Made by a program: the position numbers and the translations under genes. From NCBI GenBank assembly GCA_022843095.1, contig JALHOH010000001.1:651556-683555 (forward strand): a DNA stretch of 32,000 nucleotides. The letters run 5' to 3'. The notes beneath the pieces are model-generated. The model was not told the origin of the DNA. It worked only from the letters and a program-made list of their open reading frames with translations, and searched no databases. Origin of the DNA: Candidatus Saccharimonadota bacterium (GTDB lineage Bacteria; Patescibacteriota; Patescibacteriia; 2-12-FULL-60-25). The first letter of the stretch is position 1. Every line of letters starts with the position of its first letter. Positions 8,675-30,978 of this stretch are shown piece after piece.

Positions 8675-8912
8675 GTGCTTCTCTTGCCTTTCCACTACAC
8701 GAAGCGTTGCAGCGACCCTCGCGAGACGCAGGAGGAAGTCGGAAGTTGCGCACCGAATCCCCCCATGATGTCGTTGCGATCGAGCGCTGTCGGGAGCGAA
8801 TAGTGTCACGAAAGCGTCCGCAGATACATCCATCCAGCGCAATCTCGTGCGCGTGGTCTGCCGCGAGGCGTCTCTTGAAATGAGCCCGTATTCCGCTCAA
8901 AGTCACATGGAT

Positions 8913-9424: not shown

Positions 9425-9655
9425 TCACGCTGAACAGCCGCCGTGAAGATGGCGCCCGCACCGACCGCAGCCAGAGCAGCAGAGCACATCCTCGAGTTTG
9501 CACGATGAGCAACGCGCCGCCTTCGGCAACAACATTGGCGCGAACGCCCCCTTGCACCCCGTGTGCAGGTGTTCGCCGCACCGGCCGCATGAAGAGCAGC
9601 AGAGCACTCCGGATCGAAGATCCTCGCAGCACACGGCCTTGATCGCGTTGATCAT
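9425..9655 (-). CDS. 76-aa Cys/His-rich peptide with an internal tandem duplication
   Basis: MINAIKAVCCEDLRSGVLCCSSCGRCGEHLHTGCKGAFAPMLLPKAARCSSCKLEDVLCCSGCGRCGRHLHGGCSA has 14 Cys and 4 His. The motif VLCCSxCGRCGxHLHxGC occurs twice, 40 codons apart, and is also visible as a DNA repeat at about 9457-9487 and 9577-9607. Codons are mostly G/C-ending, which favours this frame over the overlapping Arg-rich 199-aa ORF 9357..9956. Confidence 0.55.
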   Translation of the reverse strand: MINAIKAVCCEDLRSGVLCCSSCGRCGEHLHTGCKGAFAPMLLPKAARCSSCKLEDVLCCSGCGRCGRHLHGGCSA

Positions 9656-12868: not shown

Positions 12869-13168
12869 GCAGATTCCTCCTCACCGTCAATCGTGGGTGT
12901 GATCCAACAACGCTGCGGTCGCGGCTGTGTCTCGCGTTGGTGAGCGTCGTACGCCTCGCACGGGGAGCTGCGTCTGCTCGCTTGGGGCCCTTCGTCGGCG
13001 AACACAGTGCCGTCCTCGTCGGAAGCGCGACCGCGCGAAGGATCAGCGATTTGTGGAATGTTGTGCAGATCGAGCGATGGAGTGCGTGGGATGCACTGTG
13101 TCGGGCTCGAGGCAGTTGAGGAAAGTCGCACAGCATAGGCGCGTTGAACCTTTTTCGACGTTGTGAAG

Positions 13169-13345
13169 CTACGCCGCGCGCTTTGCGGACTTTGCCGGTC
13201 TCGTCGGAGTTGCAGGCGAGGGCAGCGCAGAGGCGGGGAGGTGGCCAAGCTTCACTCTGTTCGCGATGTCCGCAGCGTATGCTGCGGTCTTCGGATCTTT
13301 GACGATGCTTCGCTGATCGTTTGGGGAGGGATGGTGTTTCGACAT
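13169..13345 (-). CDS. possible small ORF (58 aa), unknown function
   Basis: MSKHHPSPNDQRSIVKDPKTAAYAADIANRVKLGHLPASALPSPATPTRPAKSAKRAA, with AAGGA 7 nt upstream of ATG 13345. It lies in the 600-bp divergent intergenic region between the radical SAM gene and the 916-aa gene. It is weakly supported. Confidence 0.3.
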   Translation of the reverse strand: MSKHHPSPNDQRSIVKDPKTAAYAADIANRVKLGHLPASALPSPATPTRPAKSAKRAA

Positions 13346-13471
13346 CGCGGGGTCCTTTGGCGGAGAGCGAATCGGCGACTGATTCGCCGGTGTGCTCGCA
13401 GGGGACGATGCACCGACGATCTTGCTGACGCAACTCTGCAAATCAATGCATCGATTGCAGTTTGTTGCATC

Positions 13472-16222
13472 ATGGAATTGCAATCGCATTGCGTGGCGCC
13501 GTACGGTCACTCCGTGGACGTCAAGAAGCGGATCGAGCGAACGGGTGCATCGAACGACGAGCTTGCGCGACGCGTGATGGAGTACGTCGCAAAGGGCCCT
13601 GGCTACGAGCATCGGGTGAGTGCGCGATCGCTCGGCGCGAAGATTGGAGAGCTCGCGAGGGGTACCGAAACGTGGTGGCGAAGCCCGAAGCAAGCGAACT
13701 ACCTCGACGCGCTTGCTCGCGAGCTGGAGTGCGATAGAGACGACCTCGTCGCACCGATCGAAGCGCGGCGTCCGCAGCCTGTCATCGTTGAGTTTCCCGA
13801 GCTTGCAGTCGAAGCGCTCGCTCCACTCGCCCCGCTCTACGGCGAGCAAGCGCTCAGCGACATCGTTGCGGCACAGCTTGGAACTGGCGGCTTCTCGTGG
13901 CTGGTTGTGCCTGACGGCGGTGGAAAGAGTCTCGCCCTCGAGTTTCTACGCCGCGTACGAATCGACGTGGTGACCATGTCGGCCCACACGCTCTACGAGG
14001 TCAGCGAACGAATCGACGCCAACCGACGTACTGCGATCGACCTCGACCGCCCCGACGCTCGCACTGACAACTTGCTCGTGCGGCGACTGCGCGAAGCGAA
14101 GTCAGTGTGCGTGCTCGCGCCGTTCCCGCCTCCGACAGCGCTTGTTGGAATCGTACGTGCCTTCGCGCTGCAGCTGCAGTCCGACTGGCGGCAGCGTCTG
14201 TTCTCGTGGCTGAACGCACAGCACCCTGAAAACAAGAGACTCGACGCGAAGGAGTGGGAGATCTTCCTGGAGCACTTCGACCCCGACCTGGTGCGTGTCG
14301 TGACTCCCGCCGATCTCCTTTCGTTGCTCGGCTGCGCGTTCTCGCTCGGCATCCCAACGAGCAAGACGAAATACGGCGAGCTCGCTCGTCGCGCGGTCGC
14401 TGCGCGCGTTCAGCAGTCCGGCCCCGGCGCGCCTTGGCTGTCGCGTCACGGTGCTGCGGCGTTCGAGGCGTTGGTGCGTCAGCGCTTCGAGTCTGTCGCG
14501 TGGCGCTCGTCGCTTCCCGATGATGCGTGGGCGACGCTGCTGCGCCCAGAGCACTGCCCTGCACCCGATGGAAAGCAGCTCCGAGCGCTGAGCGAGCGCG
14601 TGAAGCTCGGCGCGAAGAGCGCGCGCGACGCTAAAACGATCGGCGACGAGATCGCGGAGCTTGCCTCACGAGCCGATTCAATGACGGCGATCGCATCACT
14701 TCGCGCAAGCGGCCTCTTCGCTCGCACGGCGGATGGATCTCTGGAGCCATCGCCTACATGGGTACGCGACGCGCTCGAGGGGGAGCGCGCCGACCTGCTC
14801 GTTGCAGAGGGATCGATCGAACAGTTGGGGCGCGTCTGTGCTGACGTTTCGCGGCGGCCGCTGATGGATGCAGCACTGCTTCGACTGCCGCCGCCGAAGC
14901 TGGTTCAGCTCATCGTTCGTGCGCTCGCCGAGGTCGAAGCCACACTCGGCGTCGTGGCTACGATCGAGGCCCTGTTCGAGGCGGCCGGGCACCGAATGCA
15001 CGAAGGCTGGACGCCAACAAACGAGCAACTCCCAACGCTTCGCGCGCTCGGGCTTCGACAGTGGCAATTGCTGCGCGCGCTGCCATCCTTACCTGCGACA
15101 CAGCAGCACCTGCCGTTGACGCGTCGATCCGTGCGCGAGGGCGACGGACGCAGCGCAGAGTGGCTTGCTGCTGCATGGAGGTTCACGCTCACGGTCCCGC
15201 TGGTCGAGCCCGCGACAGTCGAGTTCGACTGGCGTTTTGCCGGTTGGAAGCGGCCCCTCACGTTCGCAGACCTTGCTGAACATCTGCCGTTTCCGTACCT
15301 CGCGGTGTACGCGCCATCCCCGAACGGACACGCTTCTGTGATCCCTGGTTTCGACGCGCGGCCGCTCTCGCGAGAGGAGAGACGCCTCCATCTGCCGCTC
15401 GCAGAGCTCGGACGAGAGCTACTCGAGCGGGTCACCGACTCGTCGATCGGCGACAACATCCCGCTTGGGCTCTTCGCGCCAGCTCTTCTGGTTGCACGTA
15501 CCAAGGGATGGCGCTTCGCCCGGCAGCACTTGGAGTCGCTCTTCGATTCCCGCGTGCTCGACGTCCTCTTCGCGTGGGTGCCTGAGGAGGACGACGAGTG
15601 GACGGGACTCGCCCCGTGGTTCTGGTCGATGTGGCGCGACGAGATGCCGAACGAGAAACGCACGCTCGACTACCTCTTGAAGCTCGACATGCGACTCGTG
15701 CGCGTGCTCGTTCGCAACCTTTCGTCAGCGAGCCTCGTCGATGGTTGCCCTGTCTTCCCACCTCCGCGGCTCGTCGACCTGCTGCACGACCTCGGTCGTG
15801 CGGAGGTCGTGAGGGACATCGCGCACCGCAGCCTCCGAGCGATCATCAACGCAGCATTTCCACGGCCAAGCACGGAGGAACTGTCGAAGATGATCGCGCT
15901 CGTCGGCGATGAAGACCTCGACGTGCTCGTCGAGTGCGCGACGGACGCGTACTGGTTCGGAGTGCAAGCTGCAGCGAGGGTATGGGAACTCGACGCCGAC
16001 CGCGCGCTGCAAGCGCTGCAGTTGGCGCTGACTCACGCGGAGGCAACACGCGCGTACGCGTGGCTCGTTAGCGCTCCGAAGCTACAGTGGGAGCGCGTGC
16101 TCGATGCGATCGACGCTGCACCGTCAGCGGCCGGCGCCGTGCGGTGGTTGAGCGATAGTCTTTCGCAGGCGGAGGGTCTCGCTCCGCGTATGTTCGAAGC
16201 TTGGTTGCGGCTCAAGGAGTGA
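13472..16222 (+). CDS. large orphan protein (916 aa): HTH-like N-terminus, degenerate P-loop, long helical C-terminal region
   Basis: I start at ATG 13472 (MELQSH...) because the upstream 103 codons are Arg/Cys-rich junk. The N-terminus ASNDELARRVMEYV...VSARSLGAKIGELARG resembles an Xre-type HTH. WLVVPDGGGKSLALEF is a Walker-A-like loop that deviates from [AG]xxxxGK[ST]. TAIDLD may be a Walker B. The remaining roughly 650 aa are Leu/Ala-rich and helical with no motif I recognise. Confidence 0.7.
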   Translation: MELQSHCVAPYGHSVDVKKRIERTGASNDELARRVMEYVAKGPGYEHRVSARSLGAKIGELARGTETWWRSPKQANYLDALARELECDRDDLVAPIEARRPQPVIVEFPELAVEALAPLAPLYGEQALSDIVAAQLGTGGFSWLVVPDGGGKSLALEFLRRVRIDVVTMSAHTLYEVSERIDANRRTAIDLDRPDARTDNLLVRRLREAKSVCVLAPFPPPTALVGIVRAFALQLQSDWRQRLFSWLNAQHPENKRLDAKEWEIFLEHFDPDLVRVVTPADLLSLLGCAFSLGIPTSKTKYGELARRAVAARVQQSGPGAPWLSRHGAAAFEALVRQRFESVAWRSSLPDDAWATLLRPEHCPAPDGKQLRALSERVKLGAKSARDAKTIGDEIAELASRADSMTAIASLRASGLFARTADGSLEPSPTWVRDALEGERADLLVAEGSIEQLGRVCADVSRRPLMDAALLRLPPPKLVQLIVRALAEVEATLGVVATIEALFEAAGHRMHEGWTPTNEQLPTLRALGLRQWQLLRALPSLPATQQHLPLTRRSVREGDGRSAEWLAAAWRFTLTVPLVEPATVEFDWRFAGWKRPLTFADLAEHLPFPYLAVYAPSPNGHASVIPGFDARPLSREERRLHLPLAELGRELLERVTDSSIGDNIPLGLFAPALLVARTKGWRFARQHLESLFDSRVLDVLFAWVPEEDDEWTGLAPWFWSMWRDEMPNEKRTLDYLLKLDMRLVRVLVRNLSSASLVDGCPVFPPPRLVDLLHDLGRAEVVRDIAHRSLRAIINAAFPRPSTEELSKMIALVGDEDLDVLVECATDAYWFGVQAAARVWELDADRALQALQLALTHAEATRAYAWLVSAPKLQWERVLDAIDAAPSAAGAVRWLSDSLSQAEGLAPRMFEAWLRLKE

Positions 16223-19013: not shown

Positions 19014-19273
19014 CCCGCGCGCGCCGTTTGCGCACAGCTTGTCCACAGCCGACACGCGAATTCAAGAAATTCGTCCCCTGACGCGCCGCACGCCCGTCCG
19101 GCACGCTTGTCCTGGGAGGAGACGAGCCGTCTGCACGCTGCATCGAGCTCACGCTCGGTCGCGAAGCTCCATGCGGCCCCGTGCACTGGGGTCGTCCCGT
19201 CCCTCCTGCACGCGAACACACGCATCATGCGTGACCCCATCGCACCTTTCGTCGCGTGCAGGAGGAGACGCCC

Positions 19274-20341
19274 ATGGACGATCCCCCTCCCACCAACATC
19301 ATTCACCTGGAACGCATCCGTCCTGCCAACCGCGCCCTGCGAGCGCTGGTGGGCGTGAGCGCGCTCATGCAATCGCTCCGTGCGGACATCGAGCGCTTCG
19401 CTCCATCCACGGCCCCCGTCGTGATCGAAGGCGAGAGCGGAACGGGCAAAGAACTCGTCGCTCGCGCCCTGCACGCAGAGAGCCCGCGCCGCACGCGTCC
19501 GTTCGTCGCAGCGAACGTCGCGGCCATCGAGCCCACGCTCCTCGGCTCCGAGCTCTTCGGTCATGTGCAAGGCGCTTTCACAGGTGCCCACCGCACGCAC
19601 CGCGGGCTCTTCGAGCAAGCAGACGGGGGCACGCTGTTTCTGGACGAGATCGCGGAGGCGAGTGCTGCTGCACAAGCGTCGCTCTTGCGCGTACTCGAGA
19701 CCGGTGAGCTTCGTCCCGTCGGAGGAGAGGGGATGAAGCGCGTGTCCGTGCGGCTCATCGTCGCATCGCACGAGAACCTGTCGGAGCGCGTCGCGCAGAA
19801 GCGCTTCCGCAGCGACCTGCTGTATCGCCTTCGCGTGCTCGTGCTTCGGACGCCCTCACTTCGGGCGAGGCCCGAGGACATCCCGCAGATCGCGGACGCG
19901 TTCTTCGCTGCGAACCACGAGGAGCTCGGGCCTCGTACGCTCCGCGCGGACGCAGAGGCCTTGCTTCGTGCGGCGCGCTGGCCGGGCAATGTGCGGCAGT
20001 TGCAGAACGTGCTCCGTCGCGCGGCGGTGCAGAGCGACCTCGCCGAGCTCGGTGCCGCAGAGATCGCGCCCGTGCTCGCCGCAGAAGACCCGGGCAGCGT
20101 GCCTGTCGGAACGCCGCCGAGCGCCGCATTGCTTCGCGCCGTCCTCGTGGCGTGCGGCGGACGCATCGCGACGGCAGCACGGAAGCTCGGGGTTGCGCGG
20201 AGCACGCTTCGCGCACAGCTCAAACGAGCAGGCGTTGTCGTTGCCCGCGCATCGCTCGGTTCTCCAAGCGCGCGAAGCGGAAGCACGGGCCACGGTGGCT
20301 CGCCATCCGCTTCGTGCACGGAGGAGGACGGAGTCTCATGA
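19274..20341 (+). CDS. sigma-54-dependent transcriptional activator (bEBP) lacking an N-terminal sensory domain
   Basis: GESGTGKE is the Walker A. GHVQGAFTGA is the GAFTGA sigma-54 contact loop. GTLFLDEI is the Walker B. WPGNVRQLQN is sensor II. The C-terminal GRIATAARKLGVARSTLRAQLKRAG is a Fis-type HTH. Only about 35 aa precede the AAA+ core. I chose ATG 19274 because GGAGGAG lies upstream. Confidence 0.9.
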   Translation: MDDPPPTNIIHLERIRPANRALRALVGVSALMQSLRADIERFAPSTAPVVIEGESGTGKELVARALHAESPRRTRPFVAANVAAIEPTLLGSELFGHVQGAFTGAHRTHRGLFEQADGGTLFLDEIAEASAAAQASLLRVLETGELRPVGGEGMKRVSVRLIVASHENLSERVAQKRFRSDLLYRLRVLVLRTPSLRARPEDIPQIADAFFAANHEELGPRTLRADAEALLRAARWPGNVRQLQNVLRRAAVQSDLAELGAAEIAPVLAAEDPGSVPVGTPPSAALLRAVLVACGGRIATAARKLGVARSTLRAQLKRAGVVVARASLGSPSARSGSTGHGGSPSASCTEEDGVS

Positions 20342-21186
20342 ATACAGGCACGGATCATCAAGAGGTCGCGCGCACGCGCCTGCCGCTCACGGTCGTTCCC
20401 GACGACCACGAGGGGCCGAAGCGTCCCGCGATCACCGTCAGTCGGATCAAGCAGTACCTCGCGTGTGCGCGGCAGTATGCGTTCGAGCACGAAGAGGGGA
20501 TCGTCCCTGCCTTCGAGCCCGCCGCACGCACGTTCGGCCAGGTCATGCACAAGGCCCTCGAACGGGTCCACCACTATCGGTTCGTTGGTGGGTATCCGCG
20601 TGCGGATCAGGCGGCGGATGTGTTTCGGAGCAAGTGGTTCGATCGCCCCAAGAACGGGCTTCGGTACCTTTCGGGCTTCTCCGCCAAGGTGTACGAAGAG
20701 CGCGGGGCAGAACTCATGGCCCGCTACGTCGAAGCCTGCGCGGACGATGCGGTGCTCGCCGTCGAACCCGACGTGCGTGTGCCGCTCTCAGACGCCCTCG
20801 ATCTCGCAGGACGGATGGACCTCGTTCGTCCCGACGATCGCATCGTCGAGTTCAAGACGGCCCATCGGCAGCCCTTCGGAACGCGCGAGCACCTGCTTCA
20901 GCTCGCCGCCTACGCGTTCGCCTACGAGCGCATGCACGGCGTCCGTCCGCACGTCTCGCTCGTCACGATGGTTGCCTCCAGCGTTCCGGAGGTCATCGTG
21001 CGCAACGTCCGTGTGAGCGACAACGACCGCGCGTTCTTCGTCGCGACGGCGCACGAGGTCGTGCGCGGGATCACTGCCAAGGTGTTTCCGCCCACACCCG
21101 GCGCGCTCTGCACGCACTGCCCGTTCGCCGCGCCCTGCGCGCAGTGGGACGGTCGCGCTGCGAACGACAACGCGAGCGCGGACTGA
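20338..21186 (+). CDS. Cas4/RecB-like PD-(D/E)xK nuclease with Fe-S Cys ligands
   Basis: The ATG at 20338 overlaps the bEBP stop (ATGA). The N-terminal Cys lies in SRIKQYLACARQYAFEH. GRMDLVRPDDRIVEFKT gives D...ExK. LLQLAAYAFAY gives QxxxY. The C-terminal CTHCPFAAPC gives CxxCx5C. One N-terminal plus three C-terminal Cys is the Cas4-type 4Fe-4S pattern. Confidence 0.8.
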   Translation: MNTGTDHQEVARTRLPLTVVPDDHEGPKRPAITVSRIKQYLACARQYAFEHEEGIVPAFEPAARTFGQVMHKALERVHHYRFVGGYPRADQAADVFRSKWFDRPKNGLRYLSGFSAKVYEERGAELMARYVEACADDAVLAVEPDVRVPLSDALDLAGRMDLVRPDDRIVEFKTAHRQPFGTREHLLQLAAYAFAYERMHGVRPHVSLVTMVASSVPEVIVRNVRVSDNDRAFFVATAHEVVRGITAKVFPPTPGALCTHCPFAAPCAQWDGRAANDNASAD

Positions 21187-21346: not shown

Positions 21347-22381
21347 ATGAACCTGAACGACACAGTGTCCTTTCACGACGTGCACGAAGCCGTGCGCGAG
21401 CGCGCCTCTCGCGCGCTACCCGATACCCTTGTGCGCTACGCAGACCTTCGGTTTACGCCCGAGGGATCGCTCCGAGCCCCGAGCCTGCCCGAGCTCACGT
21501 TGAACTCGTGGTCCAAGCGGCAGCTCGCGGCGCTCCTCGGCGTCCGCTGGGAGCGTTGGTTCTCCGACGCCGTCTCGGGCACCGAGCGCGCGGAAGAGAC
21601 CAATCGCCGCCTCACACGATTGCCCGGCGAAGTGAAGCTCCGCACCATCCGCGAGGAACGCGCACCCACAGGCGTCGTGCTCCGCGCGATGCTCGGGCCC
21701 AACTTCTCTCCAATCGACGACGTGCGGATCTTCGACACGATGGCCGAGACCTTCGGTCGCGCGCTCGATACGTTCCGCTTCACGCGCGTCGATCGCACGG
21801 ACGCAACCACGATCTACAGCGCCGTCCACGCGGACGTGCGCAAGGTGGGGGACGATGCGCTTCTCCCCGGCTGGACGCTCAGGAACAGCGAGGTCGCGGG
21901 CGCAGCGCTCACGATCGACGACGCGTGGCTTCGCCTCGCGTGCATGAACGGGCTCATCGTGTCTGTGGGCGAAAAACGCCTGCTCTACCGCACGCATCGC
22001 AAGATCGACCCCGATCAGCTCGTGGCTGCGCTTGCGGTCGCGATGAAGAATCTGCCCTCCCGATGGGGACAGACGCTCGCGCTCATGGAGGCAGCTCGCG
22101 CGACGCTCGTGCCTCACCCGGACGCGGCCATCGAGGCGATGCTCGAGAACGCCGCGATCCCGCGCGAGCTCGTGCGCGAGGCACAGACCGTCGCGCTGAA
22201 GGACGGGGATCACTCGCGGTATGGCGTCGTGCAGGCGGTGACGTACGTCGCGCACGCGAAGAACGACGCCCCCGAACTGCGCTTCGTGCTGGAACGCTCT
22301 GCGGGTGACTACCTCATGGCCACCGAGCCCGCGAGCGCGGCGAACGACGGCAGCGGGATCGTGGTGCGGGCGGTGTCGTGA
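21347..22381 (+). CDS. DUF932-like (phage/plasmid-associated) protein
   Basis: AGGAGG lies 10 nt upstream of ATG 21347. LRNSEVAGAALTIDDAWLRLACMNGLIV resembles the DUF932 core (NSxxGxxAl...r..C.NGl). LGPNFSPIDD resembles its upstream motif. The assignment is from memory of family patterns. Confidence 0.65.
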   Translation: MNLNDTVSFHDVHEAVRERASRALPDTLVRYADLRFTPEGSLRAPSLPELTLNSWSKRQLAALLGVRWERWFSDAVSGTERAEETNRRLTRLPGEVKLRTIREERAPTGVVLRAMLGPNFSPIDDVRIFDTMAETFGRALDTFRFTRVDRTDATTIYSAVHADVRKVGDDALLPGWTLRNSEVAGAALTIDDAWLRLACMNGLIVSVGEKRLLYRTHRKIDPDQLVAALAVAMKNLPSRWGQTLALMEAARATLVPHPDAAIEAMLENAAIPRELVREAQTVALKDGDHSRYGVVQAVTYVAHAKNDAPELRFVLERSAGDYLMATEPASAANDGSGIVVRAVS

Positions 22382-22401: not shown

Positions 22402-22436
22402 CCCCGCGACTTCACCGGTCGCGGGGCTTTTCTTGC
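22402..22436 (+). terminator. rho-independent terminator after the DUF932-like gene
   Basis: CCCCGCGAC (22402-22410), loop TTCACCG, then GTCGCGGGG (22418-22426), followed by CTTTTCTTGCTT. It begins 21 nt after the stop codon. Confidence 0.75.
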
Positions 22437-22671
22437 TTCGTTTCACGCAGAGCGGCGGGCAGCGTTGAAGGAAGCGCGAAGTCTATGTACATCGATATCG
22501 GGGTGTCAGGTAGAGACGAACCATGCACGAGTTAGTTTCGTAAACCGAACTTCTGACTTGCGGAACTGACTTGACGCTACACGTCCGCAGATACACGAGC
22601 ATATGGTACCCGTGTTCTGGCGCGGCGAGCATGTAGTTCAGCAACAACTTGTTTGAGGATCCCAAAGCGCG

Positions 22672-23238
22672 ATGGTTGAGCCAACAACACCCAAGTCCCC
22701 TCGTTTCGAGTTCTTATGGAAAGTGCTAGGTCGCTTCGATACGTACATCGGAGCAACACTTACGCGTGCAGGGATGACCGCCGCATTCAACGCAGTGGTG
22801 CTTGGCCTCGCTGCAGGAAAGTGGTCGGAGTTCTTCGGAATGGACCACCAGCATGCAACCGCAAAGTGTGTTGTGGCGTTCGCGCTGGTGGCCTCGGCAG
22901 CATGTTCGCTATTTTCGCTCGCATGTGCGCTACTCGCAGTGGATCCACTGTTGACGACACCAACCACGCTGCCGAAGATGCATTCCACAGTATTCTTCGG
23001 AGACGTAGCTAGGTTCACAGATCCGACCAGTTACAAAAGTGCCGTGGACGCTGCCTCCGAACAGGATCTCGAGTCGGATCTTGCAACGCAAGTGTACGTG
23101 GTGGGTAAGATTGTTGACACGAAGTTCCGTTATCTGAAACGAGCATCATTCGGAATGATGCTATCGCTGGCGTTCATCGCAGTCGCAGTCAGCGCCAAAT
23201 CCTGCACAACGATCGTTGATGCAGTGGGAGGAATCTGA
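22672..23238 (+). CDS. 3-TM membrane protein, PycTM/DUF5706-like candidate effector
   Basis: Three hydrophobic segments are present: AGMTAAFNAVVLGLAAG, CVVAFALVASAACSLFSLACALLAV and SFGMMLSLAFIAVAVSA. The loop motif HSTVFFGDVARFTDPTSYKSAV...DLATQVYVVGKIVDTKFRYLKRA resembles the xxFFGxxxxxxxxxY...Kyxxl pattern I recall for the DUF5706 family, which contains Pycsar TM effectors. Its stop overlaps the cyclase start. Confidence 0.55.
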   Translation: MVEPTTPKSPRFEFLWKVLGRFDTYIGATLTRAGMTAAFNAVVLGLAAGKWSEFFGMDHQHATAKCVVAFALVASAACSLFSLACALLAVDPLLTTPTTLPKMHSTVFFGDVARFTDPTSYKSAVDAASEQDLESDLATQVYVVGKIVDTKFRYLKRASFGMMLSLAFIAVAVSAKSCTTIVDAVGGI

Positions 23239-24554
23239 TGGTACAGCCAACTCTTCAGCGCGTTCTTGAATCAGAATTCGCGCGATATCGGACGTTTTCG
23301 AGAGAAAAAGTGGCGCTGTCCGAACGTCACCGTGATTCAGCAACGAACCCAAGTGGCCAAGTATCTCCCGCACTTGCTCCTCACTATGGGGTGCAGGAGA
23401 TCGTTCGACCTATGTTCGGGAAGGGGCCAAGCAAAACCCCGTCGATCGGCGACCATCCGGACTTTCAGCACTTGAAACAGACGGACAAGCACGAGTTCTG
23501 CGCAATCACAACTCTTTTCATGGACATTGAAAGCTCTACGCGACTAGGGATCTTGTACGAACCCAAAGACGTGTTCGAGATCAAGAATGCAGTCATTCGG
23601 ATGGCCATGGATATCGTGCGTTCTTTCGATGGCCACGTTCACCGAATCATGGGGGACTCCGTCATGGCATTCTTCGGTGGTCGCTCGATTGTTGCCGAGC
23701 AGGGTGCCATCGACGCGATCAACTGTGCGGCTGTACTGCGCTTGTTCTCACAGGTCGTCGTTGCACCTTACCTTGCGCAAAACGGAATCACGGATCCGGT
23801 TGGAATCCGCACAGGGATCGACTTTGGACCAAGCGAAAAGGTGCTGTGGAAGTCCTATGGCTACCCTGGCATGGAAGAGGTAACAGCGACGTCGTTCTTC
23901 GTTGACGTTGCCGCAAAACTCCAGCACTCAGCAGGCCGAAATCAGATCGCGATGGGTCAGTCTCTTCGTGAGCTTTTGGACTTTCCTGACGAACTACTGG
24001 ACACCAAGACATCGATCAAAGATGGTGAACGTCAACGAGACCCATACATTCAACCCAATCACACCAACCGTGACGGCAAGCCGATCAACTATCGTATGTT
24101 TCTACTCAACTGGGAGCAATACCTTGCGTGCACAAGAATCGCACAACTCGAACAGCACTTGGTTGATTCAAAGAGGCATGGCGCTACTGGTCTTCAAGTC
24201 GAAGCGACCATCTTCCGCGAGCAAACCGATCCGCTCCCGATTTGTCCGTATCACCCCTGCGGATCACATGTAGCGAAGAATCGATCCATCCGGTTTCGGG
24301 CAAAACTTCAACACCAGCCGCACCTCCCGTTTACGGTTCGCTTCTCGGTTGAGAATCACGGCCAGGAGGCACGAACGCAAGGTGGAGAGTCGTTAGGAAA
24401 CCACCATACAGACTACTCGATTACAAAGACGGGGGTCTTGCAGTTTACTCATAGCGAACCGACGGCTTTTCGCGGACTTCACTACTTGAACGTAGAGATC
24501 CTGAATTCGGGTGCACTGCAGGAAAGAGTCCGCTTCGGAGTCTATGTCGAATAG
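23238..24554 (+). CDS. class III nucleotidyl cyclase domain protein with long N- and C-terminal extensions (Pycsar PycC-like candidate)
   Basis: GGAGGA lies 5 nt upstream. TTLFMDIESSTRL gives the first metal Asp in an F-x-D-I context. HRIMGDSVMAFFG gives K/RxxGD and the second metal Asp. VGIRTGIDFGP is the IGIHxG-like strand. SFFVDVAAKLQ occupies the position of the usual VNxAxRL. About 85 aa lie N-terminal and about 170-190 aa C-terminal to the cyclase core, with no motif I recognise. Confidence 0.8.
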   Translation: MVQPTLQRVLESEFARYRTFSREKVALSERHRDSATNPSGQVSPALAPHYGVQEIVRPMFGKGPSKTPSIGDHPDFQHLKQTDKHEFCAITTLFMDIESSTRLGILYEPKDVFEIKNAVIRMAMDIVRSFDGHVHRIMGDSVMAFFGGRSIVAEQGAIDAINCAAVLRLFSQVVVAPYLAQNGITDPVGIRTGIDFGPSEKVLWKSYGYPGMEEVTATSFFVDVAAKLQHSAGRNQIAMGQSLRELLDFPDELLDTKTSIKDGERQRDPYIQPNHTNRDGKPINYRMFLLNWEQYLACTRIAQLEQHLVDSKRHGATGLQVEATIFREQTDPLPICPYHPCGSHVAKNRSIRFRAKLQHQPHLPFTVRFSVENHGQEARTQGGESLGNHHTDYSITKTGVLQFTHSEPTAFRGLHYLNVEILNSGALQERVRFGVYVE

Positions 24555-24609
24555 TTGTTTCGAGCGATGGTTGGTGACCGGAACGAGCGATTAGCAGGGA
24601 TCCGGCGAC

Positions 24610-25180
24610 TCACGCTGCACTTCGTATCTGCTGAGATTCCGCTGACAGATCGCGGATGCACGAGGCGATCCTAGCACCCTCCACTGCGAGCTGTTCGGCA
24701 GAGAACAATCGAGTAAGCTCCTGCTGATCCATTCGGTCGGCGCCCGACGCGCACGACTCGAAGAAGAGAGTCAGCGTATCGCCGACTCGACTCACCGTCG
24801 CGAGGCGCATCAGCACCAAGTCACGGACGCGACTGAGGTACATCGCGCGCACAAACCGACGCCCGCTCTTGGCCAGCACAAGCTGCCCGTGAGTTGTGCA
24901 GCAAGAGCAGCAGGTGCTTGCACAACAGCTCTCCCTTCGCGGCGACGCGCACTTGCCGCCGCTCGGCTGCGTTCGTTCGCTCCTGTCGTCGCACCGACTT
25001 CACACGGAGCTCGCGCACTCGCTCCTGCTTCAGATACGGGCAATATAGCGCTGCCATCCGTTCGACGAACGGCACGGACCAATGTGGTGGGGCGCTAGTG
25101 GGCCGCCAACGAACAAGGTGGATCCGCCAGATCGGCGAGACGTGGTTCAACGGGGCAGCACTCGGTGCAGCGATCGTCAT
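24610..25180 (-). pseudogene. possible frameshifted gene (or two overlapping small genes), function unknown
   Basis: ORFs 24821..25219 (-) (ATG at 25180, MTIAAPS...MAALYCPYLKQERVRELRVKSVRRQERTNAAERRQVRVAAKGELLCKHLLLLLHNS) and 24610..24879 (-) (...LVLAKSGRRFVRAMYLSRVRDLVLMRLATVSRVGDTLTLFFES...) both show G/C-ending codon bias. They read as one continuous helical protein if a single-nucleotide shift is allowed near 24880-24898. Confidence 0.35.
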
Positions 25181-25769: not shown

Positions 25770-26240
25770 CTATAGAGGTCTGATGATGGCTGGAGAGAAA
25801 CTGCGAATCGCATCCCCATCAGCCAACCACACCGCACTGACCTTGGTCGCGAGCGCCTCTGGATCAACGCCGACCTCTTTTCCGCTCGAACCCGAGTGCC
25901 ACCACACAGCCGGTGACCGCCCTGTGTTGTGCTGGATGAATGATTGGATCTCGGCTCCACTGTCAGTTCCGCCAGCTTGGAGAGTGCCTCGGTGGCTGAT
26001 TCCGTGACGGAAGGCCCTCCAGAACGCTTTCAGTAGGTCGCGCTCAGTGAGCCCCATCATTTTCTCCATCTCGGCGTAGTCGGTGTCGTTGAGGCTGGTC
26101 GCGGTGCTGCTTGTCTTCAACCTCGCGTACGCCTCGATGAGCGAACAGGTGAGTAGCAGTGTGGCGAAGCCATTTTCGTGATTTTTCACGAGTTCCATGA
26201 CAGGGTTGATGAACCAGTTCTGGAATTGCTCCCGTTGCAT
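25770..26240 (-). CDS. hypothetical protein (156 aa) with an Rx4H motif; possible HEPN-like protein
   Basis: I chose ATG 26240 because AAGGAGG lies 5 nt upstream. MQREQFQNWFINPVMELVKNHENGFATLLLTCSLIEAYARL is helical. AFWRAFRHGISHRG contains R-x4-H (RHGISH), as in HEPN RNase motifs. GC appears lower than the flanks. The family is not confirmed. Confidence 0.55.
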   Translation of the reverse strand: MQREQFQNWFINPVMELVKNHENGFATLLLTCSLIEAYARLKTSSTATSLNDTDYAEMEKMMGLTERDLLKAFWRAFRHGISHRGTLQAGGTDSGAEIQSFIQHNTGRSPAVWWHSGSSGKEVGVDPEALATKVSAVWLADGDAIRSFSPAIIRPL

Positions 26241-26280
26241 GTCTCCTCCTTCTCTCATGGTTACCACGCGAGGCGGTGCA

Positions 26281-27588
26281 TCAGGGAGGGGATGAGCCCC
26301 GCGGCGTTGGCAGCACCGGAAACACCTCACCAAACCCATCTCGCACACTCTCCGCCTCGCGAATGTAGCCCTGCGTCGTGTCGAACCCCGTGTGTCCCGC
26401 AGCCCGTTGGATACGCAGCGGTTCGTCGCCACGGATTGCACGCCACGTGATGCCCGTCGCGCGTAGATCGTAGAAGGTCATGGGCTTGCGCGTCGCGTCG
26501 CTCGCGAAGAGATCGCTCCTCGTGATCCCGGCGAGGCGCAGGTGTTCGCGCAGCAATTCGGCGCTGCTCTTCGGCACGCCGTCCGGCACGACGCGCTCGT
26601 CTGGCTTCTTCCCGCGCGCCATCTCGCGCAGCAGCGGGAGCAGGTTCGCTTCGATCGAGAACCGTCGCGCTTCCTGCGTCTTCACGGGCTTCACTGCGCC
26701 CGTGTCGTAGTGAACGGCGCGATGAATGTGCACGGTTCCACGTTCGAGGTCGAGGTCCTCCCACGCGAGCGCTTCGAGTTCGCCCGGTCGGGCGTAGAGG
26801 TAGACCGCAAGCGTATAGAGCACACGGAAGCGCTCGGGCACGCGCTCAGAGCGCACGAGAGAGAGGAACTCCGCGGGCGAGATGTACTGCTTCACCTTCT
26901 TCGTCCCGCGATCGGGCGCGGCGACACCATCACATGGGTTGTCGCTCCGCACACGAAGCGTGACCGTCTTCGAGCGCGACGCATCGCGGAACATCGCCCG
27001 CGTGAGTGCCCATCCGTTCCACGACGTGCGCCACGATTGCCCGGCCCGTGTCGCGTCGTCGAGCGCGCTCACGAGCGCCTCGATGTCCGCCTTGGACACG
27101 GTCGCGATCGACTTGTCTCCGAGCACGGGCTCGACGTGCGAACGAAACCTCGAGCGATCCGTGCGCACCGTCGAGAGCCCCTTCTGCGCCCGATCGTTCA
27201 ACCATCGCTCGAACCACACCCGCACTGTTTCGCTCGGAGGCTCGCTCGCACGCGTTGGAGCTGTTGATGGTACCGTGGTCCTTCGCGCAGGACGATCGAT
27301 CGCAGCAGGCATCGCAGCACGTGTCGCGGGCGCAGCCTTCGTGGCGGGCAGCGCGGGCTCAGACACCGCGATCGTCTGCACCTCTTCGGGCGACCATTCA
27401 CCGCGGTCGAAGCGCGCTTGTAGTTGGAGCCCCACCGCCCGCGCCCACGCAACGCCGAGCTCGATCCCTGGCGGGGGAGGAGCGATGAGCGCGACTGGGC
27501 GCACCCAGCGACGTCCATCCGGTAGGCGCACGCCCGTGTACACGACGCCGCGCTGCTTGAAGCCGATGCCACTGCGCGGCCGCGCCAT
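26281..27588 (-). CDS. int: tyrosine recombinase / phage-type integrase
   Basis: I chose ATG 27588 (MARPRSGIGFKQRGVVYTGVRLPDGRR) because GGAGGG lies upstream. A SAM-like N-domain is present (WFERWLNDRAQKGLSTVRTDRSRFRSHVEPVLGDKSIATVSKADIEALV). The catalytic region has YLYARPGELEALAWEDLDL (Arg I), FYDLRATGITW (the HxLR box with Tyr in place of His) and AAGHTGFDTTQGYI (His and the nucleophile Tyr). Confidence 0.9.
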   Translation of the reverse strand: MARPRSGIGFKQRGVVYTGVRLPDGRRWVRPVALIAPPPPGIELGVAWARAVGLQLQARFDRGEWSPEEVQTIAVSEPALPATKAAPATRAAMPAAIDRPARRTTVPSTAPTRASEPPSETVRVWFERWLNDRAQKGLSTVRTDRSRFRSHVEPVLGDKSIATVSKADIEALVSALDDATRAGQSWRTSWNGWALTRAMFRDASRSKTVTLRVRSDNPCDGVAAPDRGTKKVKQYISPAEFLSLVRSERVPERFRVLYTLAVYLYARPGELEALAWEDLDLERGTVHIHRAVHYDTGAVKPVKTQEARRFSIEANLLPLLREMARGKKPDERVVPDGVPKSSAELLREHLRLAGITRSDLFASDATRKPMTFYDLRATGITWRAIRGDEPLRIQRAAGHTGFDTTQGYIREAESVRDGFGEVFPVLPTPRGSSPP

Positions 27589-27589
27589 C

Positions 27590-27934
27590 TCAACGCCCTC
27601 CAAGAAAGCGTGCGACGGCTTCGTTCGCGGCGTGTCCCAGGGGATCACGCGTGGCTTCGCCCAGACCACAGACGACGCGATCGACTTCGGCGGGCGAGAC
27701 CCATTGGCGCCTTCCGTCGCGTCGGATCTCGACGCGATGACGCTGACACCATCGCCGAAAACTCCGCGTTCCTTTGAACCCTCGTCGCATCGCCTCCGCC
27801 GGCAATAGCACCCACGCGACGAGTGCGGTCGCATGCGACGCCTCGGCGATTTGGAGGCTTGCGTTGTCGCGGGACGCCCCCGCTCCGCTCGACGCGCCAC
27901 GCACCATCGTCGCTTCGTCGCGTGCGGGCTTCAT
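27590..27934 (-). CDS. excisionase/MerR-like HTH DNA-binding protein
   Basis: I chose ATG 27934 (MKPARDE...). WVLLPAEAMRRGFKGTRSFRRWCQRHRVEIRRDGRRQWVSPAEVDRVV fits the Xis/AlpA-type pattern (HTH followed by 'r.g.r..f....v..w'). It ends 2 nt before the integrase start. Confidence 0.6.
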   Translation of the reverse strand: MKPARDEATMVRGASSGAGASRDNASLQIAEASHATALVAWVLLPAEAMRRGFKGTRSFRRWCQRHRVEIRRDGRRQWVSPAEVDRVVCGLGEATRDPLGHAANEAVARFLGGR

Positions 27935-28116
27935 CGCACACCCCCGCGTGGAGTCATGGAGCGATCTGCGTGTCGCGCGGACGCACGGATACACGACACG
28001 CACGCCTCTCGTTCGAGCAAGACGAGTGACGCTCCGAACCACGTGAGCGAGCGGTGATATTCGGGCTCAGGGACCTGCATATCCGCGTGGCAATTTCCAA
28101 GGCAATCACGCGGTCG

Positions 28117-28141
28117 GACCGTCGCAACCGTTGCGACGGTC
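28117..28141. repeat. perfect 25-bp palindrome in the xis-int upstream region
   Basis: GACCGTCGCAAC-C-GTTGCGACGGTC has 12-bp perfect arms around one central base. It lies between the Replic_Relax-like stop (28254) and the excisionase-like start (27934). Confidence 0.7.
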
Positions 28142-28253
28142 TGCTGCGATAGGAGTGCACGAACGCGACGCGGCTCCCGTGGCGTCAGGTCGTCGCGACA
28201 CCCGGGCGCGACGCTCCGTCGCGTGGGGTCCGTGATCGTTCCGCATCGCGGAG

Positions 28254-29111
28254 TCATTGATGCGCCCCCGTCGCAACGAGCTCGCGCCACGGGATGTCTC
28301 CGCCGCGCGGCAGCCGCGCGAGCATGTCCATAGGCACCCACGAAGGGCCGAGGATTCCCTGGTCTCGCACGCGCTCATCGGTCGTGCCGAACCAGAGCCG
28401 AGCTCCTGCGGTCGCCTGGAGCGCGATCGCGAGGTTGCGCAGTCGCACCTCGGACGTCGTGAGCACGAGCGCGCTCCACGTAGAGATGCCCCACATCGAT
28501 GCGCCTTCTGCGGCGATCTTTGCGATGGCCTCGCCCTTCGTACGCGCGAAGAACGCGCAGCTCTCCTCGGCGAGATCAACCTCGACGTTCCACCCGAAGC
28601 TCGCCCCTCGTTCCTCGATCGCGATGAGGAGGTCCGGGATATACGGCGCGCCATCTTCCCGTGCCAGATACCGTAGTTCGTGGTCCGAGTAGATCGTGAG
28701 CGTGCCCTCCGCCCTGACACCCGAGAGCGCTTGCTCGAACGCGATCCGCACGTCCCCGATGCCCAGGATATGCGCAAGCGCGCGGGCCTCGGGCGCGCGA
28801 GGTAGTGGCGGCGCAACGACATCAATCCCTTCCCGTTCGAGAAGCGTCAGTCCCTTCGTGGTCAGGGTGTAGATGTTCGGCGCGTTCTGGTGTGCGACCG
28901 TCACGCGCACGAGCCCGTGGCTCTGAAGAACCGACGTTCGCCTCGCGGTCGTCGTACGATCCGGAAACCCTCCAGCGACTTGCAGTTGGAGGAGTGTTGC
29001 CGCGCGAAGGCGCGCGAGGGTGGCGAGCGCTCCGCGCACATCGCGTGGCTGGAGTTCACCGTGCACCCGTGCGGGCGTTTCTCGCCCGCGTCGTCGACGT
29101 GCTTCCTTCAT
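28254..29111 (-). CDS. replication-relaxation (Replic_Relax)-like protein
   Basis: The ATG at 29111 overlaps the upstream stop (ATGA). LQPRDVRGALATLARLRAATLLQLQVAGGFPDRTTTARRTSVLQSHGLVRVTV...NIYTLTTKGLTLLE fits the N-terminal wHTH pattern of that family (l..rD..il..l...r.lt..ql......a.rrl..L...glv......vy.Lt..G). The upstream 207 codons of the track ORF belong to other frames or genes. Confidence 0.65.
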   Translation of the reverse strand: MKEARRRRGRETPARVHGELQPRDVRGALATLARLRAATLLQLQVAGGFPDRTTTARRTSVLQSHGLVRVTVAHQNAPNIYTLTTKGLTLLEREGIDVVAPPLPRAPEARALAHILGIGDVRIAFEQALSGVRAEGTLTIYSDHELRYLAREDGAPYIPDLLIAIEERGASFGWNVEVDLAEESCAFFARTKGEAIAKIAAEGASMWGISTWSALVLTTSEVRLRNLAIALQATAGARLWFGTTDERVRDQGILGPSWVPMDMLARLPRGGDIPWRELVATGAHQ

Positions 29112-29446
29112 GACGACCCCCGATCCGGGCGCACGCAGGCGACTCCACACTGCGGACACGGCACGAACTGATACTCCGCGGAACAGAGCGGACAGCGCCA
29201 CGCCGAGCCCTCCGTGACCGCGCGGCACGCGCTGCAACGAAACCGCCCATACACCGACACCGTCGCATTGCAGCTCGAACACCGCATGGTCGGCGCATAC
29301 GCACGCGCGAGGCGGGCGAGCGAGAGGACGAACGCCGCCACGGCGAACGTGAACAGAACGATGCCCGCGACCCATCCGACCGCGACATACGCCGCGACGG
29401 CCGAGAGGCCGACGAGAGCCGCTCCCACGCGAAGGAGGGACTTCAT
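29108..29446 (-). CDS. small membrane protein with double Zn-ribbon-like Cys motifs (112 aa)
   Basis: MKSLLRVGAALVGLSAVAAYVAVGWVAGIVLFTFAVAAFVLSLA gives two TM segments. It is followed by CSSC...CSAC...CPLC...CPQC (four CxxC pairs). ATGA overlaps occur at both ends (29443-29446 and 29108-29111). Confidence 0.6.
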   Translation of the reverse strand: MKSLLRVGAALVGLSAVAAYVAVGWVAGIVLFTFAVAAFVLSLARLARAYAPTMRCSSCNATVSVYGRFRCSACRAVTEGSAWRCPLCSAEYQFVPCPQCGVACVRPDRGSS

Positions 29447-30978
29447 CGCGGCCTCCGAGATGCGAGCACGTCCGGCGTCTGCCAGGCGCGTGCATCGATC
29501 CCTGCGGCAAACGCGCGGGTCTCCTGTGCTTCGGCGTGCGCGATGAGCGACGCACGATCGACGCCTGTCGCGCCTCGTTCGAGCTGCCCGAGCAGCTCCG
29601 GTGAGAGCGTACGCAGATCGAACGGTACAAAGGGCTCTGCATCGAGCCCCGTTGGACCGAAGGGCGCGCCTCGATCCGTGTAGATGAACCGCCGACTCGG
29701 CATCCGGGTCGCAAACTCGATGCGCGCAGCATCGGTCGCGCCTCGTGTCCCCGCGCCGACGCGAGACGGAAGCAGGTCGAGTTGCGCCCGCGCCTCGTCG
29801 CGGCTCGCGCGAAAGAGCAGGCGGTGGCGCGCGTTGGTCGCGAGGCTCTCTGCGAGCGCGGCGGGCAACTGGAAGAGCCCCTGGTGGCACGCCGTCACCG
29901 ACACGTCGTGCGCGCGAGCCGTTTCGAGCAACGTGCAGAGCACGCGCGTCGCGACCGGCGAGAGCGCCTGTTGAAGTTCGTCGGTGACGAAGAACACCGA
30001 CGCGTTGCGCTCCCGCCGCGGATCGAAGGTTTGAAACGCGATCGAGAGCAGCATGAGCGAGGCGATCGCGCGTGCACCTTCGAGCGCGAGGACCGCCCCG
30101 CTCACGTCGATGACGCTCAGCGCTCCGGGCGCAAAGCTACGCCCCAAATCGAAGCGGGTTGGTCCGGACAGCACCGCGCGAAGTGCAGGATCACGGAGCA
30201 AGAGATCGAGCTGGCTCCGTACGCCGTCGATCGTGGTGCGGCTCTCCCGCAGAAAACGCTCACGAAAGTACGCCGCGACCTCGGCGATCGGGCAACGCAT
30301 GCCCAGGCGTGCGAGCTCCTCCGGGCGCGACAGATACGCCCGCAGTTCGAGCAACGTCCATCCGTTCACGATGGCGAGCGCAAGCAAGTTGGTCAGCAGG
30401 AGCTCTTGCCGTCCGCCGAAGCGCGCGCCGAGCACCTGTTCCAGCACTTCGGCCTGCGCTCCCGCCTGCACCATGGTCGCGATCGAAGGTTCGGCCGCGA
30501 TCAGTTGCCAAGGCGTGAGCGCTCCGCCGCGAAAGAAGCGATGCACATGCGTGCGATCGAGCAACGCGCGTTGTCCCGCGCGGTTCTGCGTCGCGAGCTC
30601 CGCCGCCCGAAGTCCGAGCGCGATGTCGCCCAGAAATCCCTGGCAGACGAACACGATGATCGCGATGGGCATGCCATCGCGTTGCAGTCGCAGGAGATCG
30701 CGGATCAGGGACGCGACGACGAAGCTCTTCCCAGATCCACTGGCCCCCGTCACATGCAGGTGCATGCCTCTGAGCTCGCGAAGAAGGGCTCGGACGCGGG
30801 TGCGGTGTTGGGTGCGGCCGAGGACGATGCCGGGTTCCCGAGCTGTTCGACCGAGCGCATCGAGCAGCCGCGGATCATCGGCGTTCGCCGCGTCCTCTTC
30901 TGCCTGGAGTGCCTGCCGGGCGAGTGTGCGTTCACGCGAGCGTGTGAGTCCGAGCAGCGTATGACGGATGTCGCTCAT
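29443..30978 (-). CDS. FtsK/HerA/TraD-superfamily P-loop ATPase (putative DNA translocase / coupling protein), soluble part
   Basis: HLHVTGASGSGKSFVVASLIRDLL is the Walker A. NASVFFVTDELQQA is the Walker B. At 511 aa it has no N-terminal TM segment. Its start overlaps the stop of the upstream membrane-protein gene (ATGA at 30975-30978). Confidence 0.75.
   Translation of the reverse strand: MSDIRHTLLGLTRSRERTLARQALQAEEDAANADDPRLLDALGRTAREPGIVLGRTQHRTRVRALLRELRGMHLHVTGASGSGKSFVVASLIRDLLRLQRDGMPIAIIVFVCQGFLGDIALGLRAAELATQNRAGQRALLDRTHVHRFFRGGALTPWQLIAAEPSIATMVQAGAQAEVLEQVLGARFGGRQELLLTNLLALAIVNGWTLLELRAYLSRPEELARLGMRCPIAEVAAYFRERFLRESRTTIDGVRSQLDLLLRDPALRAVLSGPTRFDLGRSFAPGALSVIDVSGAVLALEGARAIASLMLLSIAFQTFDPRRERNASVFFVTDELQQALSPVATRVLCTLLETARAHDVSVTACHQGLFQLPAALAESLATNARHRLLFRASRDEARAQLDLLPSRVGAGTRGATDAARIEFATRMPSRRFIYTDRGAPFGPTGLDAEPFVPFDLRTLSPELLGQLERGATGVDRASLIAHAEAQETRAFAAGIDARAWQTPDVLASRRPR

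Follow-up and report, generated by a model that had tools for sequence, protein, structure and literature searches.

A stretch of 32,000 nucleotides (nt) from Candidatus Saccharimonadota bacterium (contig JALHOH010000001.1, positions 651,556 to 683,555), hereafter the window, carries on its forward strand two overlapping genes, one for a 188-amino-acid (aa) membrane protein (22672-23238) and one for a 438-aa class III nucleotidyl cyclase (23238-24554). We read this pair, with a probability of about 0.9, as a Pycsar anti-phage operon of the clade E / Pycsar-2 type that is intact and was acquired horizontally. Judged from its sequence, the 438-aa protein is assigned as pycC, of the PycC branch of class III nucleotidyl cyclases, and the 188-aa protein as PycTM, the Pycsar membrane effector of the three-transmembrane (3TM) pJV1-spdB3 family. 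A preliminary description, made from the letters alone, had placed both open reading frames (ORFs) at exactly these coordinates and on this strand, and had proposed a Pycsar-like cyclase plus membrane-effector module of atypical architecture. The module is supported by matches to PADLOC, Pfam and the structures 8JSF and 9ARD, but each of the oddities listed for it is the norm of the PycC clade that bears an AGS-C domain.

Results

Both proteins were identified by profile searches. Residues 22-437 of the cyclase matched positions 26-448 of the 449 in the PADLOC PycC model PDLC00764 with an E-value of 5.2e-126, and three more PADLOC PycC models matched it with E-values from 1e-53 to 1e-102. The effector scored 60.4 bits (E 2.6e-16; cut-off 27.2) against the Pfam family PF18967, PycTM ("Pycsar effector protein"), while nearly its full length was covered by the PADLOC PycTM/2TM-effector models PDLC00700 (E 8.7e-26) and PDLC02364 (PycTM; E 1.5e-24). 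As matches go, these hidden Markov model (HMM) E-values for effector and cyclase are far beyond chance. The preliminary description had considered that the membrane protein might fall in an unrelated transporter family, but Pfam and PADLOC both place it in PycTM. The cyclase-family HMM match that it had anticipated came from PADLOC PycC, the Pfam Guanylate_cyc model itself staying under threshold (20.1 vs 21.9 bits).

The class III motifs that had been picked out by eye were located in the cyclase, with LFMDIESST at residue 93, IMGDSVMAFFG at 137, GIRTGIDFGP at 189 and VDVAAKL at 222. By sequence, its best relative in the Protein Data Bank (PDB) is 8JSF (phmmer, E 4e-27), the structure of EaPycC, a clade E cytidylate cyclase of Elizabethkingia anophelis that was shown biochemically to make cyclic CMP (cCMP) (PMC11224242). 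An AlphaFold2 model of the cyclase, built on 24 homologues, reached a predicted local distance difference test (pLDDT) score of 89.3 and a predicted template modelling (pTM) score of 0.90, and a Foldseek search with the whole model returned 8JSF first (E 1.3e-21, target-normalised TM-score 0.80-0.82), followed by class III cyclases. In this model, two N-terminal helices and a low-confidence linker lead into the core, behind which come a beta-rich insert (~254-290) and a beta-sandwich (319-437).

The predicted class III catalytic core, delimited by phmmer and Foldseek comparison with 8JSF and by the columns of an alignment of 120 cyclase homologues from which the cyclase residue counts below are taken, spans residues ~68-250 (23439..23987, + strand). 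Its landmarks are GDHPxF (71-76), F94, the metal-binding D96 and D140, R136, M138 and V222-D223...K227. D96 and D140 are invariant (120/120), R136 is found in 120/120 and F94 in 119/120 homologues, and by alignment D96, D140, F94 and R136 correspond to D102, D146, F100 and R142 of EaPycC, residues on which metal binding or cCMP synthesis depends (PMC11224242). The alignment of the metal-binding Asp residues, a point that the preliminary description had left to be checked, thus holds both toward EaPycC and across the homologues. All 57 family-invariant columns are kept in the window cyclase. VDVAAKL had been noted as an unusual replacement of VNxAxRL and its transition-state Asn/Arg pair; the motif is present and the pair is absent as described, but this is the clade consensus rather than an exception, with V222 in 120/120, D223 in 116/120 and K227 in 120/120 homologues. 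The annotated cyclase of E. coli ST2747 reads FFVDVAAKLQ and so repeats the motif verbatim, and the Lys of the AxK(L/M)Q motif is also found in active EaPycC (...SLACKMQ).

The N- and C-terminal extensions of the cyclase, which had appeared unusual for want of a recognisable motif, are likewise regular parts of this clade. In the N-terminal one, GDHPxF comes after a conserved two-helix element, and the C-terminal one combines the clade E insert with AGS-C. The two-helix (bihelical) element occupies residues 6-33 (23253..23336, + strand), its helices 6-19 and 22-33 being modelled at pLDDT ~80-86, and in predicted secondary structure it matches the N-terminal bihelical domain of Pycsar-2; the family-invariant N-terminal residues are Q53, R57 and G71-D72-H73-P74-x-F76. 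The beta-rich insert, residues ~251-309 (23988..24164, + strand), has conserved P273-N274 and Y285 and is modelled with strands at 254-256, 258-261, 264-267 and 286-290. The sequence alignment with EaPycC reaches residue 296, and the insert is probably the clade E "Y-shaped" beta structure that was described near the active site of EaPycC (PMC11224242).

A beta-rich C-terminal domain had been suspected in the preliminary description, with Foldseek suggested as the means to examine it. It is real, and it is an AGS-C immunoglobulin-like domain at residues 319-437 (24192..24548, + strand), where Pfam PF18134 AGS_C matches with an E-value of 2e-10 (41.2 bits, cut-off 26.7). Folded alone, the C-terminal 139 residues gave a pLDDT of 89.1, and their top Foldseek match was 9ARD, the AGS-C of EcPycC (E 4.5e-6, TM-score 0.65/0.68), with which the window domain has the motifs NHGQEA, FRGLH and GVY in common. 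We assign the domain to AGS-C because 9ARD is its top fold match and because of these common motifs. At least 470 full-length homologues of the cyclase were found, nearly all of them with PF18134 AGS_C.

In the effector, hydropathy revealed a weaker segment at ~30-50 and strong ones at 62-96 and 157-182, while all three hydrophobic segments are clear in three effector homologues. The earlier count of three transmembrane segments therefore stands on the two strong segments and on the homologues, with the qualification that the first segment is weak in the window protein itself; PycTM is described in the literature as a 3TM pJV1-spdB3-family protein. The effector had also been thought too short to hold a canonical cyclic-nucleotide-binding domain (CNBD), but 188 aa is typical, the median of 58 PycTM-like effector ORFs being 189 aa, and PycTM is by nature without a canonical CNBD. 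Across 61 PycTM family members, R21, D23 and Y25 are conserved ahead of the first transmembrane segment, as are P92, S105, F108-F109, Y121, D136, Q140 and an invariant K151 in the loop between the second and third segments, and the window effector retains every one of them. As a guess from these residues, the ligand site of PycTM might be the conserved cytosolic face formed by the R-x-D-x-Y motif and this loop with Lys151. Residue 32 is Arg in the window effector and Lys in 92% of the 61 relatives. The effector is 32% identical (E 7e-33) to its syntenic Nitrospirota homologue.

The two genes are joined as had been seen at first reading, with TGATG at 23236-23240 and one base in common. The overlap is between TGA, the stop codon of the effector (23236-23238), and ATG, the start codon of the cyclase (23238-23240), and a Shine-Dalgarno-like run, GGGAGGA, lies at 23226-23232, 6 nt 5' of the cyclase ATG. 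This arrangement (23226..23240, + strand) would be compatible with translational coupling of effector and cyclase. A ribosome-binding-like GAGGA run (22655-22659) also stands 12 nt upstream of the effector ATG. The intergenic leader of the operon (22437..22671, + strand) is of lower GC content and is presumed to hold the promoter of the pair; no Rfam family matched anywhere in the window, the leader included. On its left the leader is bordered by a terminator-like hairpin with T-run (22402..22436, + strand), which ends an upstream high-GC gene (21347-22381). The hairpin itself (22402-22426) starts 21 nt past the upstream stop and has a 10-bp stem with 8 G-C pairs followed by CTTTTCTT; the T-run directly 3' of the stem is CTTTTCTTGC.

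The pair had been described as an islet, distinct from its flanks in base composition and third codon positions and beginning right after a terminator. Both parts of this description were borne out. GC content is 0.51-0.55 over 22501-24500 vs 0.66-0.69 upstream, and GC content at third codon positions (GC3) is 0.57 in both genes of the pair vs 0.80 and 0.85 in the two genes directly upstream. The left border is sharp, with a drop from 0.65 to 0.55 at ~22400 that coincides with the hairpin, while the right border is gradual (~24600-24800). The difference between a GC3 of 0.57 and the 0.80-0.85 of the flanks indicates a foreign origin of the pair, and we conclude that the pair, whose composition is alien to the genome around it, was horizontally acquired. 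In this family, relatives were found on 36 plasmids and 2-3 phages.

The preliminary description had taken effector-first order as unusual and had made its proposal depend on synteny in other genomes. In all three genomic relatives (one from Sorangium, two from Nitrospirota; cyclase identity 48-51%), the cyclase is immediately preceded by a 178-198-aa transmembrane protein. For a wider survey, 80 metagenomic loci were scanned with a profile made from four effectors and iterated once, and the 58 loci whose upstream sequence was 550 nt or longer were considered assessable. A PycTM-like gene was found directly upstream and on the same strand in 57/58 of them, with a gap of -28 to +168 nt between effector and cyclase and with cyclase identity down to 31%. 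The same order, a "Pycsar system effector family protein" followed by the cyclase, is annotated in RefSeq at four E. coli/Salmonella sites, namely a Salmonella IncF plasmid, an E. coli site beside tRNA-Thr, another E. coli chromosomal location and a P2-like prophage of E. coli. The pairing is thus kept among homologues, and effector-first order is the rule. Because the neighbours vary among homologous loci, the pair is a self-contained two-gene module. The prophage example, a PycTM-PycC pair of the same clade in E. coli ST2747 (NZ_CP007394.1, L087:1644-3546), sits between the virion-morphogenesis and baseplate V genes of a P2-like prophage, which is a kind of hotspot known for phage defence, and illustrates the mobility of the two-gene module.

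A single locus among the 58 departs from this pattern. On metagenome contig Ga0268299_1002014 (L010:3007-5329), an AGS-C PycC that is 46% identical to the window cyclase has no upstream PycTM; instead, a 311-aa protein with a CNBD and a CAP12/Pycsar-TIR domain is encoded downstream on the same strand (PF00027 E 2e-10, PF10137 E 3e-32), and it is the only CNBD-TIR case in the set. The Pycsar-2 subclade has been reported to pair with transmembrane effectors, CNBD-TIR being excluded (10.64898/2026.08.12.744502). This locus contradicts the published exclusion and shows an effector swap together with a changed gene order.

The surroundings of the pair are rich in nuclease, ATPase and mobile-element genes, a radical-SAM protein among them. 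To the right, a tyrosine integrase is encoded at 26281-27900 (- strand; Pfam Phage_integrase; PHROG phrog_1 E 1.6e-38), and the distance from the cyclase is 1.7 kb rather than the 1 kb first given. Upstream of the integrase gene (27590-30978, - strand) lie a 150-aa ORF, possibly excisionase- or helix-turn-helix-like, and a 511-aa HerA/TrwB-like ATPase with weak matches to Pfam DUF87 and TrwB_AAD_bind and a PADLOC match to mad8 (E 2e-9), which by sequence suggests that an integrative, possibly conjugative, element extends rightward of the integrase. Directly after the 3' end of the integrase gene, on the same strand and in a second GC dip (0.56-0.61), an ORF listed as 223 aa (25770-26441, - strand) matched nothing in Pfam, PADLOC or PHROG; its true start is probably an internal MQREQF..., giving ~155 aa, and the integrase element could carry it as cargo. 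That the pair itself is linked to this element as cargo is plausible. No direct or inverted att-like repeats were seen to bracket the pair: when the left border was compared with the region up to 29.5 kb, no exact match exceeded 10-11 nt, which is chance level, and no tRNA gene was found in the window.

To the left, the 344-aa protein directly upstream (21347-22381, + strand) has no Pfam or PADLOC match and resembles phrog_1362, of unknown function (E 4e-11); the GC3 of its gene, 0.85, is host-typical. A stand-alone Cas4-like PD-(D/E)XK nuclease precedes it (20152-21186, + strand; Pfam PDDEXK_1 E 3e-28; PADLOC Cas4 E 2e-15), near which no cas genes or CRISPR array were seen; as listed, it begins before a sigma-54 activator gene (19256-20341) has ended, and the true start is probably later. 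Farther away, an SbcCD-like pair (3897-8842, - strand) with a 4-nt overlap encodes a 1174-aa AAA_27/SMC-like ATPase (Pfam AAA_27 E 1e-61; a weak PADLOC match to LmuB, E 1.4e-6) and a 474-aa calcineurin-like metallophosphoesterase, and might be a repair or defence module. A 1019-aa ORF (13163-16222, + strand) with a coding-like GC3 of 0.72 gave no match in Pfam, PADLOC or PHROGs, and two 45-nt direct repeats at 9443-9607, 78% identical and spaced by 120 nt, consist of GTGAAGATGGCGCCCGCACCGACCGCAGCCAGAGCAGCAGAGCAC and a variant of it.

Discussion

In a 2026 preprint, the laboratories of Patel, Aravind and Nobrega define Pycsar-2 by an N-terminal bihelical domain, a cyclic nucleoside monophosphate (cNMP) cyclase, a C-terminal AGS-C and a pJV1-spdB3 3TM effector (Chakravarti et al. 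2026, 10.64898/2026.08.12.744502). Every one of these architectural features is present in the window pair and none differs; with its AGS-C fusion, its bihelical N-terminus and a 3TM effector in place of CNBD-TIR, and from its domain build and its HMM and fold similarity, the window cyclase is assigned to clade E / Pycsar-2. All features of Pycsar that can be examined in silico, namely membership of the PycC branch, the Asp pair, an adjacent effector and conserved pairing, were found as well.

The founding E. coli Pycsar system, EcPycC plus EcPycTM, is reportedly that of Tal et al. 2021 (Cell 184:5728). The window pair is built likewise, the E. coli system having a 3TM PycTM and a pyrimidine cyclase with a C-terminal immunoglobulin-like AGS-C, and in annotated E. 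coli Pycsar loci the effector also comes first. E. coli/Salmonella homologues have ~32-37% full-length identity to the window cyclase, and the AGS-C of EcPycC (9ARD) has ~21% identity to the window AGS-C; the GC content of the E. coli host is very unlike that of the window host. The three E. coli loci that we fetched are other PycC variants, ~25% identical to 9ARD. With the 9ARD fragment as query, fragments only and no plasmid match were obtained. A frameshifted Logan contig, which is not EcPycC itself, has an AGS-C 96% identical to that of EcPycC. This EcPycC-like contig has F-x-D, HR(L/I)MGD (as HRLMGD) and VDxxAKLQ in common with the window cyclase.

EaPycC is alike in the catalytic region, with the Asp pair, the Phe (F100/F94), the Arg (R142/R136) and the motif Lys kept, and like the window cyclase it has a beta insert after the core. 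It differs in being 342 aa long and without AGS-C, in reading T-S-L-A-C-K-M where the window clade reads V-D-V-A-A-K-L, and in having the cCMP-determining Q144 at the position of Met138. PucsarTM (EcPucC plus EcPucTM) also combines a Pycsar-related cyclase with a 3TM pJV1-spdB3-like effector, and EcPucTM assembles as a hexamer in the membrane and acts in abortive infection that depends on the multiplicity of infection. Pucsar is, however, sister to Pycsar-1, with cGMP as its product and with no AGS-C described (10.64898/2026.08.12.744502), whereas the window cyclase groups with AGS-C-bearing clade E. Type I CBASS with CD-NTase-AGS-C fusions is similar in carrying AGS-C on the signal-making enzyme, in often having a small transmembrane effector and in its abortive-infection logic. 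By contrast, the CBASS enzyme is a Pol-beta-fold CD-NTase that makes an oligonucleotide, while the window enzyme is a class III cyclase for which, by analogy, a cyclic mononucleotide product is expected. CBASS was rejected as an assignment, the PADLOC CBASS cyclase models matching only residues 311-437, which are AGS-C, and the core having the class III fold.

In the mechanism that we propose, the cyclase dimer would be held inactive until phage infection, and infection would activate it, possibly through or modulated by AGS-C. The activated cyclase would then cyclise a pyrimidine nucleoside triphosphate, most likely CTP to 3',5'-cCMP with cUMP as the main alternative; PycTM would bind the cyclic nucleotide and impair the inner membrane, and the infected cell would die or arrest before phage progeny are released (abortive infection). 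PycTM has been described as causing cCMP-triggered membrane impairment. An earlier preprint proposed that AGS-C acts in phage sensing or cyclase regulation and found AGS-C fusions to be clade-specific among PycC enzymes; by analogy, AGS-C is presumed here to be the sensor or regulatory module of the cyclase, a candidate role in the family as a whole. We favour cCMP because no clade other than E has been shown to make it, and reasoning from relatives we would estimate ~60% for cCMP, ~30% for cUMP and ~10% for anything else.

Several observations weigh against this account. The product, the trigger and the phenotype that it would give the pair are all drawn by analogy from relatives, and the nearest cyclase homologue is 53% identical, a distance over which specificity could have drifted. 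Position 138 is Met where EaPycC has Q144, a residue required there for cCMP synthesis (PMC11224242), and in the effector the pre-TM1 motif has Leu at residue 30, which is Asn in 85% of the 61 relatives. Added to these are the subthreshold Guanylate_cyc score of the cyclase, the bare similarity of the effector to one E. coli PycTM in pairwise comparison (E 0.039), an NCBIfam search in which neither protein matched, and a search of the + strand upstream of the pair in which no sigma-70-like consensus was found.

The substitution at position 138 bears on the possibility that a Pycsar-family pair here makes another signal, either cUMP or a purine cNMP as in Pucsar, which would leave the overall logic unchanged. 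Lacking the Gln that EaPycC needs for cCMP, the window cyclase invites this reading, and so do cGMP-producing relatives with 3TM effectors and AlphaFold 3 (AF3) modelling that favoured UTP over GTP for Pycsar-2, CTP not being reported (10.64898/2026.08.12.744502). However, the cyclase groups with clade E by sequence and fold, its AGS-C build is that of EcPycC, which the PDB entry names a cytidylate cyclase, and Pucsar is described as sister to Pycsar-1 and without mention of an AGS-C fusion. Met is moreover the family majority at position 138 (Met in 109 and Gln in 10 of the 120 homologues) and is found in the frameshifted EcPycC-like contig, for which reasons Met138 seems compatible with a cytidylate cyclase lineage. 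We regard another signal as possible, though we would not favour it. That a divergent AGS-C PycC with Met138, paired with a Leu30 effector, has shifted in specificity toward a cyclic nucleotide or phage trigger undocumented for Pycsar we consider improbable; on that reading the window AGS-C, which is well folded in the model, could also serve for a direct test of AGS-C as a phage sensor.

The remaining explanations would remove the defence role altogether. An inactive, decaying Pycsar remnant would fit with the unusual Leu30 of the effector and with a leader in which no recognisable promoter was found, and at 53% identity for the best relative there is no close relative for a selection test; yet both ORFs are full length without frameshifts, the overlap and the Shine-Dalgarno-like run are kept, 57/57 family-invariant cyclase columns are retained and the cyclase model is confident (pLDDT 89), which makes decay very unlikely. 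Still less credit is due to a housekeeping cyclic-nucleotide signalling pair without a role in immunity. Its class III fold (TM-score ~0.8 to CyaC and CyaB) and the sigma-54 activator in the flank, which puts regulatory genes nearby, would suit such a pair, but the best matches are to defence-specific PycC models rather than physiological cyclases, the PycTM synteny is strict, the family is found on plasmids, phages and prophage hotspots, and the composition of the pair is foreign to the genome. A physiological adenylate or guanylate cyclase was tried as an assignment and set aside, with Guanylate_cyc at 20.1 bits (< 21.9) and no canonical Asn/Arg pair, the fold still being class III. The PycTM family takes its name from pJV1 SpdB3, and within 7 kb there are a tyrosine integrase and a TrwB/HerA-like ATPase, on which grounds the membrane protein might serve a SpdB3-like plasmid-spread function of the neighbouring integrase plus FtsK/HerA-like element, the cyclase being an unrelated passenger. 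Against this, the two genes have one base in common and are inherited together in 57/58 loci whatever the neighbours, the GC3 of the pair is unlike that of the upstream flanking genes and of the right-hand ATPase gene, and no att repeats connect the pair to the element, and we give this explanation hardly any weight.

Read as a Pycsar-2-type defence operon, the pair has an architecture that is already in RefSeq, PADLOC and Pfam, partly solved (8JSF, 9ARD) and in the literature, and the locus, at no more than 53% identity to any sampled relative, appears as a divergent new member. It thus adds an example from a high-GC host to a well-populated, described Pycsar subclade and goes little beyond annotation; its practical value is a correct label, as neither NCBIfam nor the source record gives a name for either protein. 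The locus also shows Pycsar arriving as a compact two-gene low-GC islet beside an integrase. The questions that it touches, none of which this locus opens to new tests, are those of the whole family, namely how PycC is activated, what AGS-C senses and how a ~190-aa PycTM without a canonical CNBD recognises cyclic pyrimidines.

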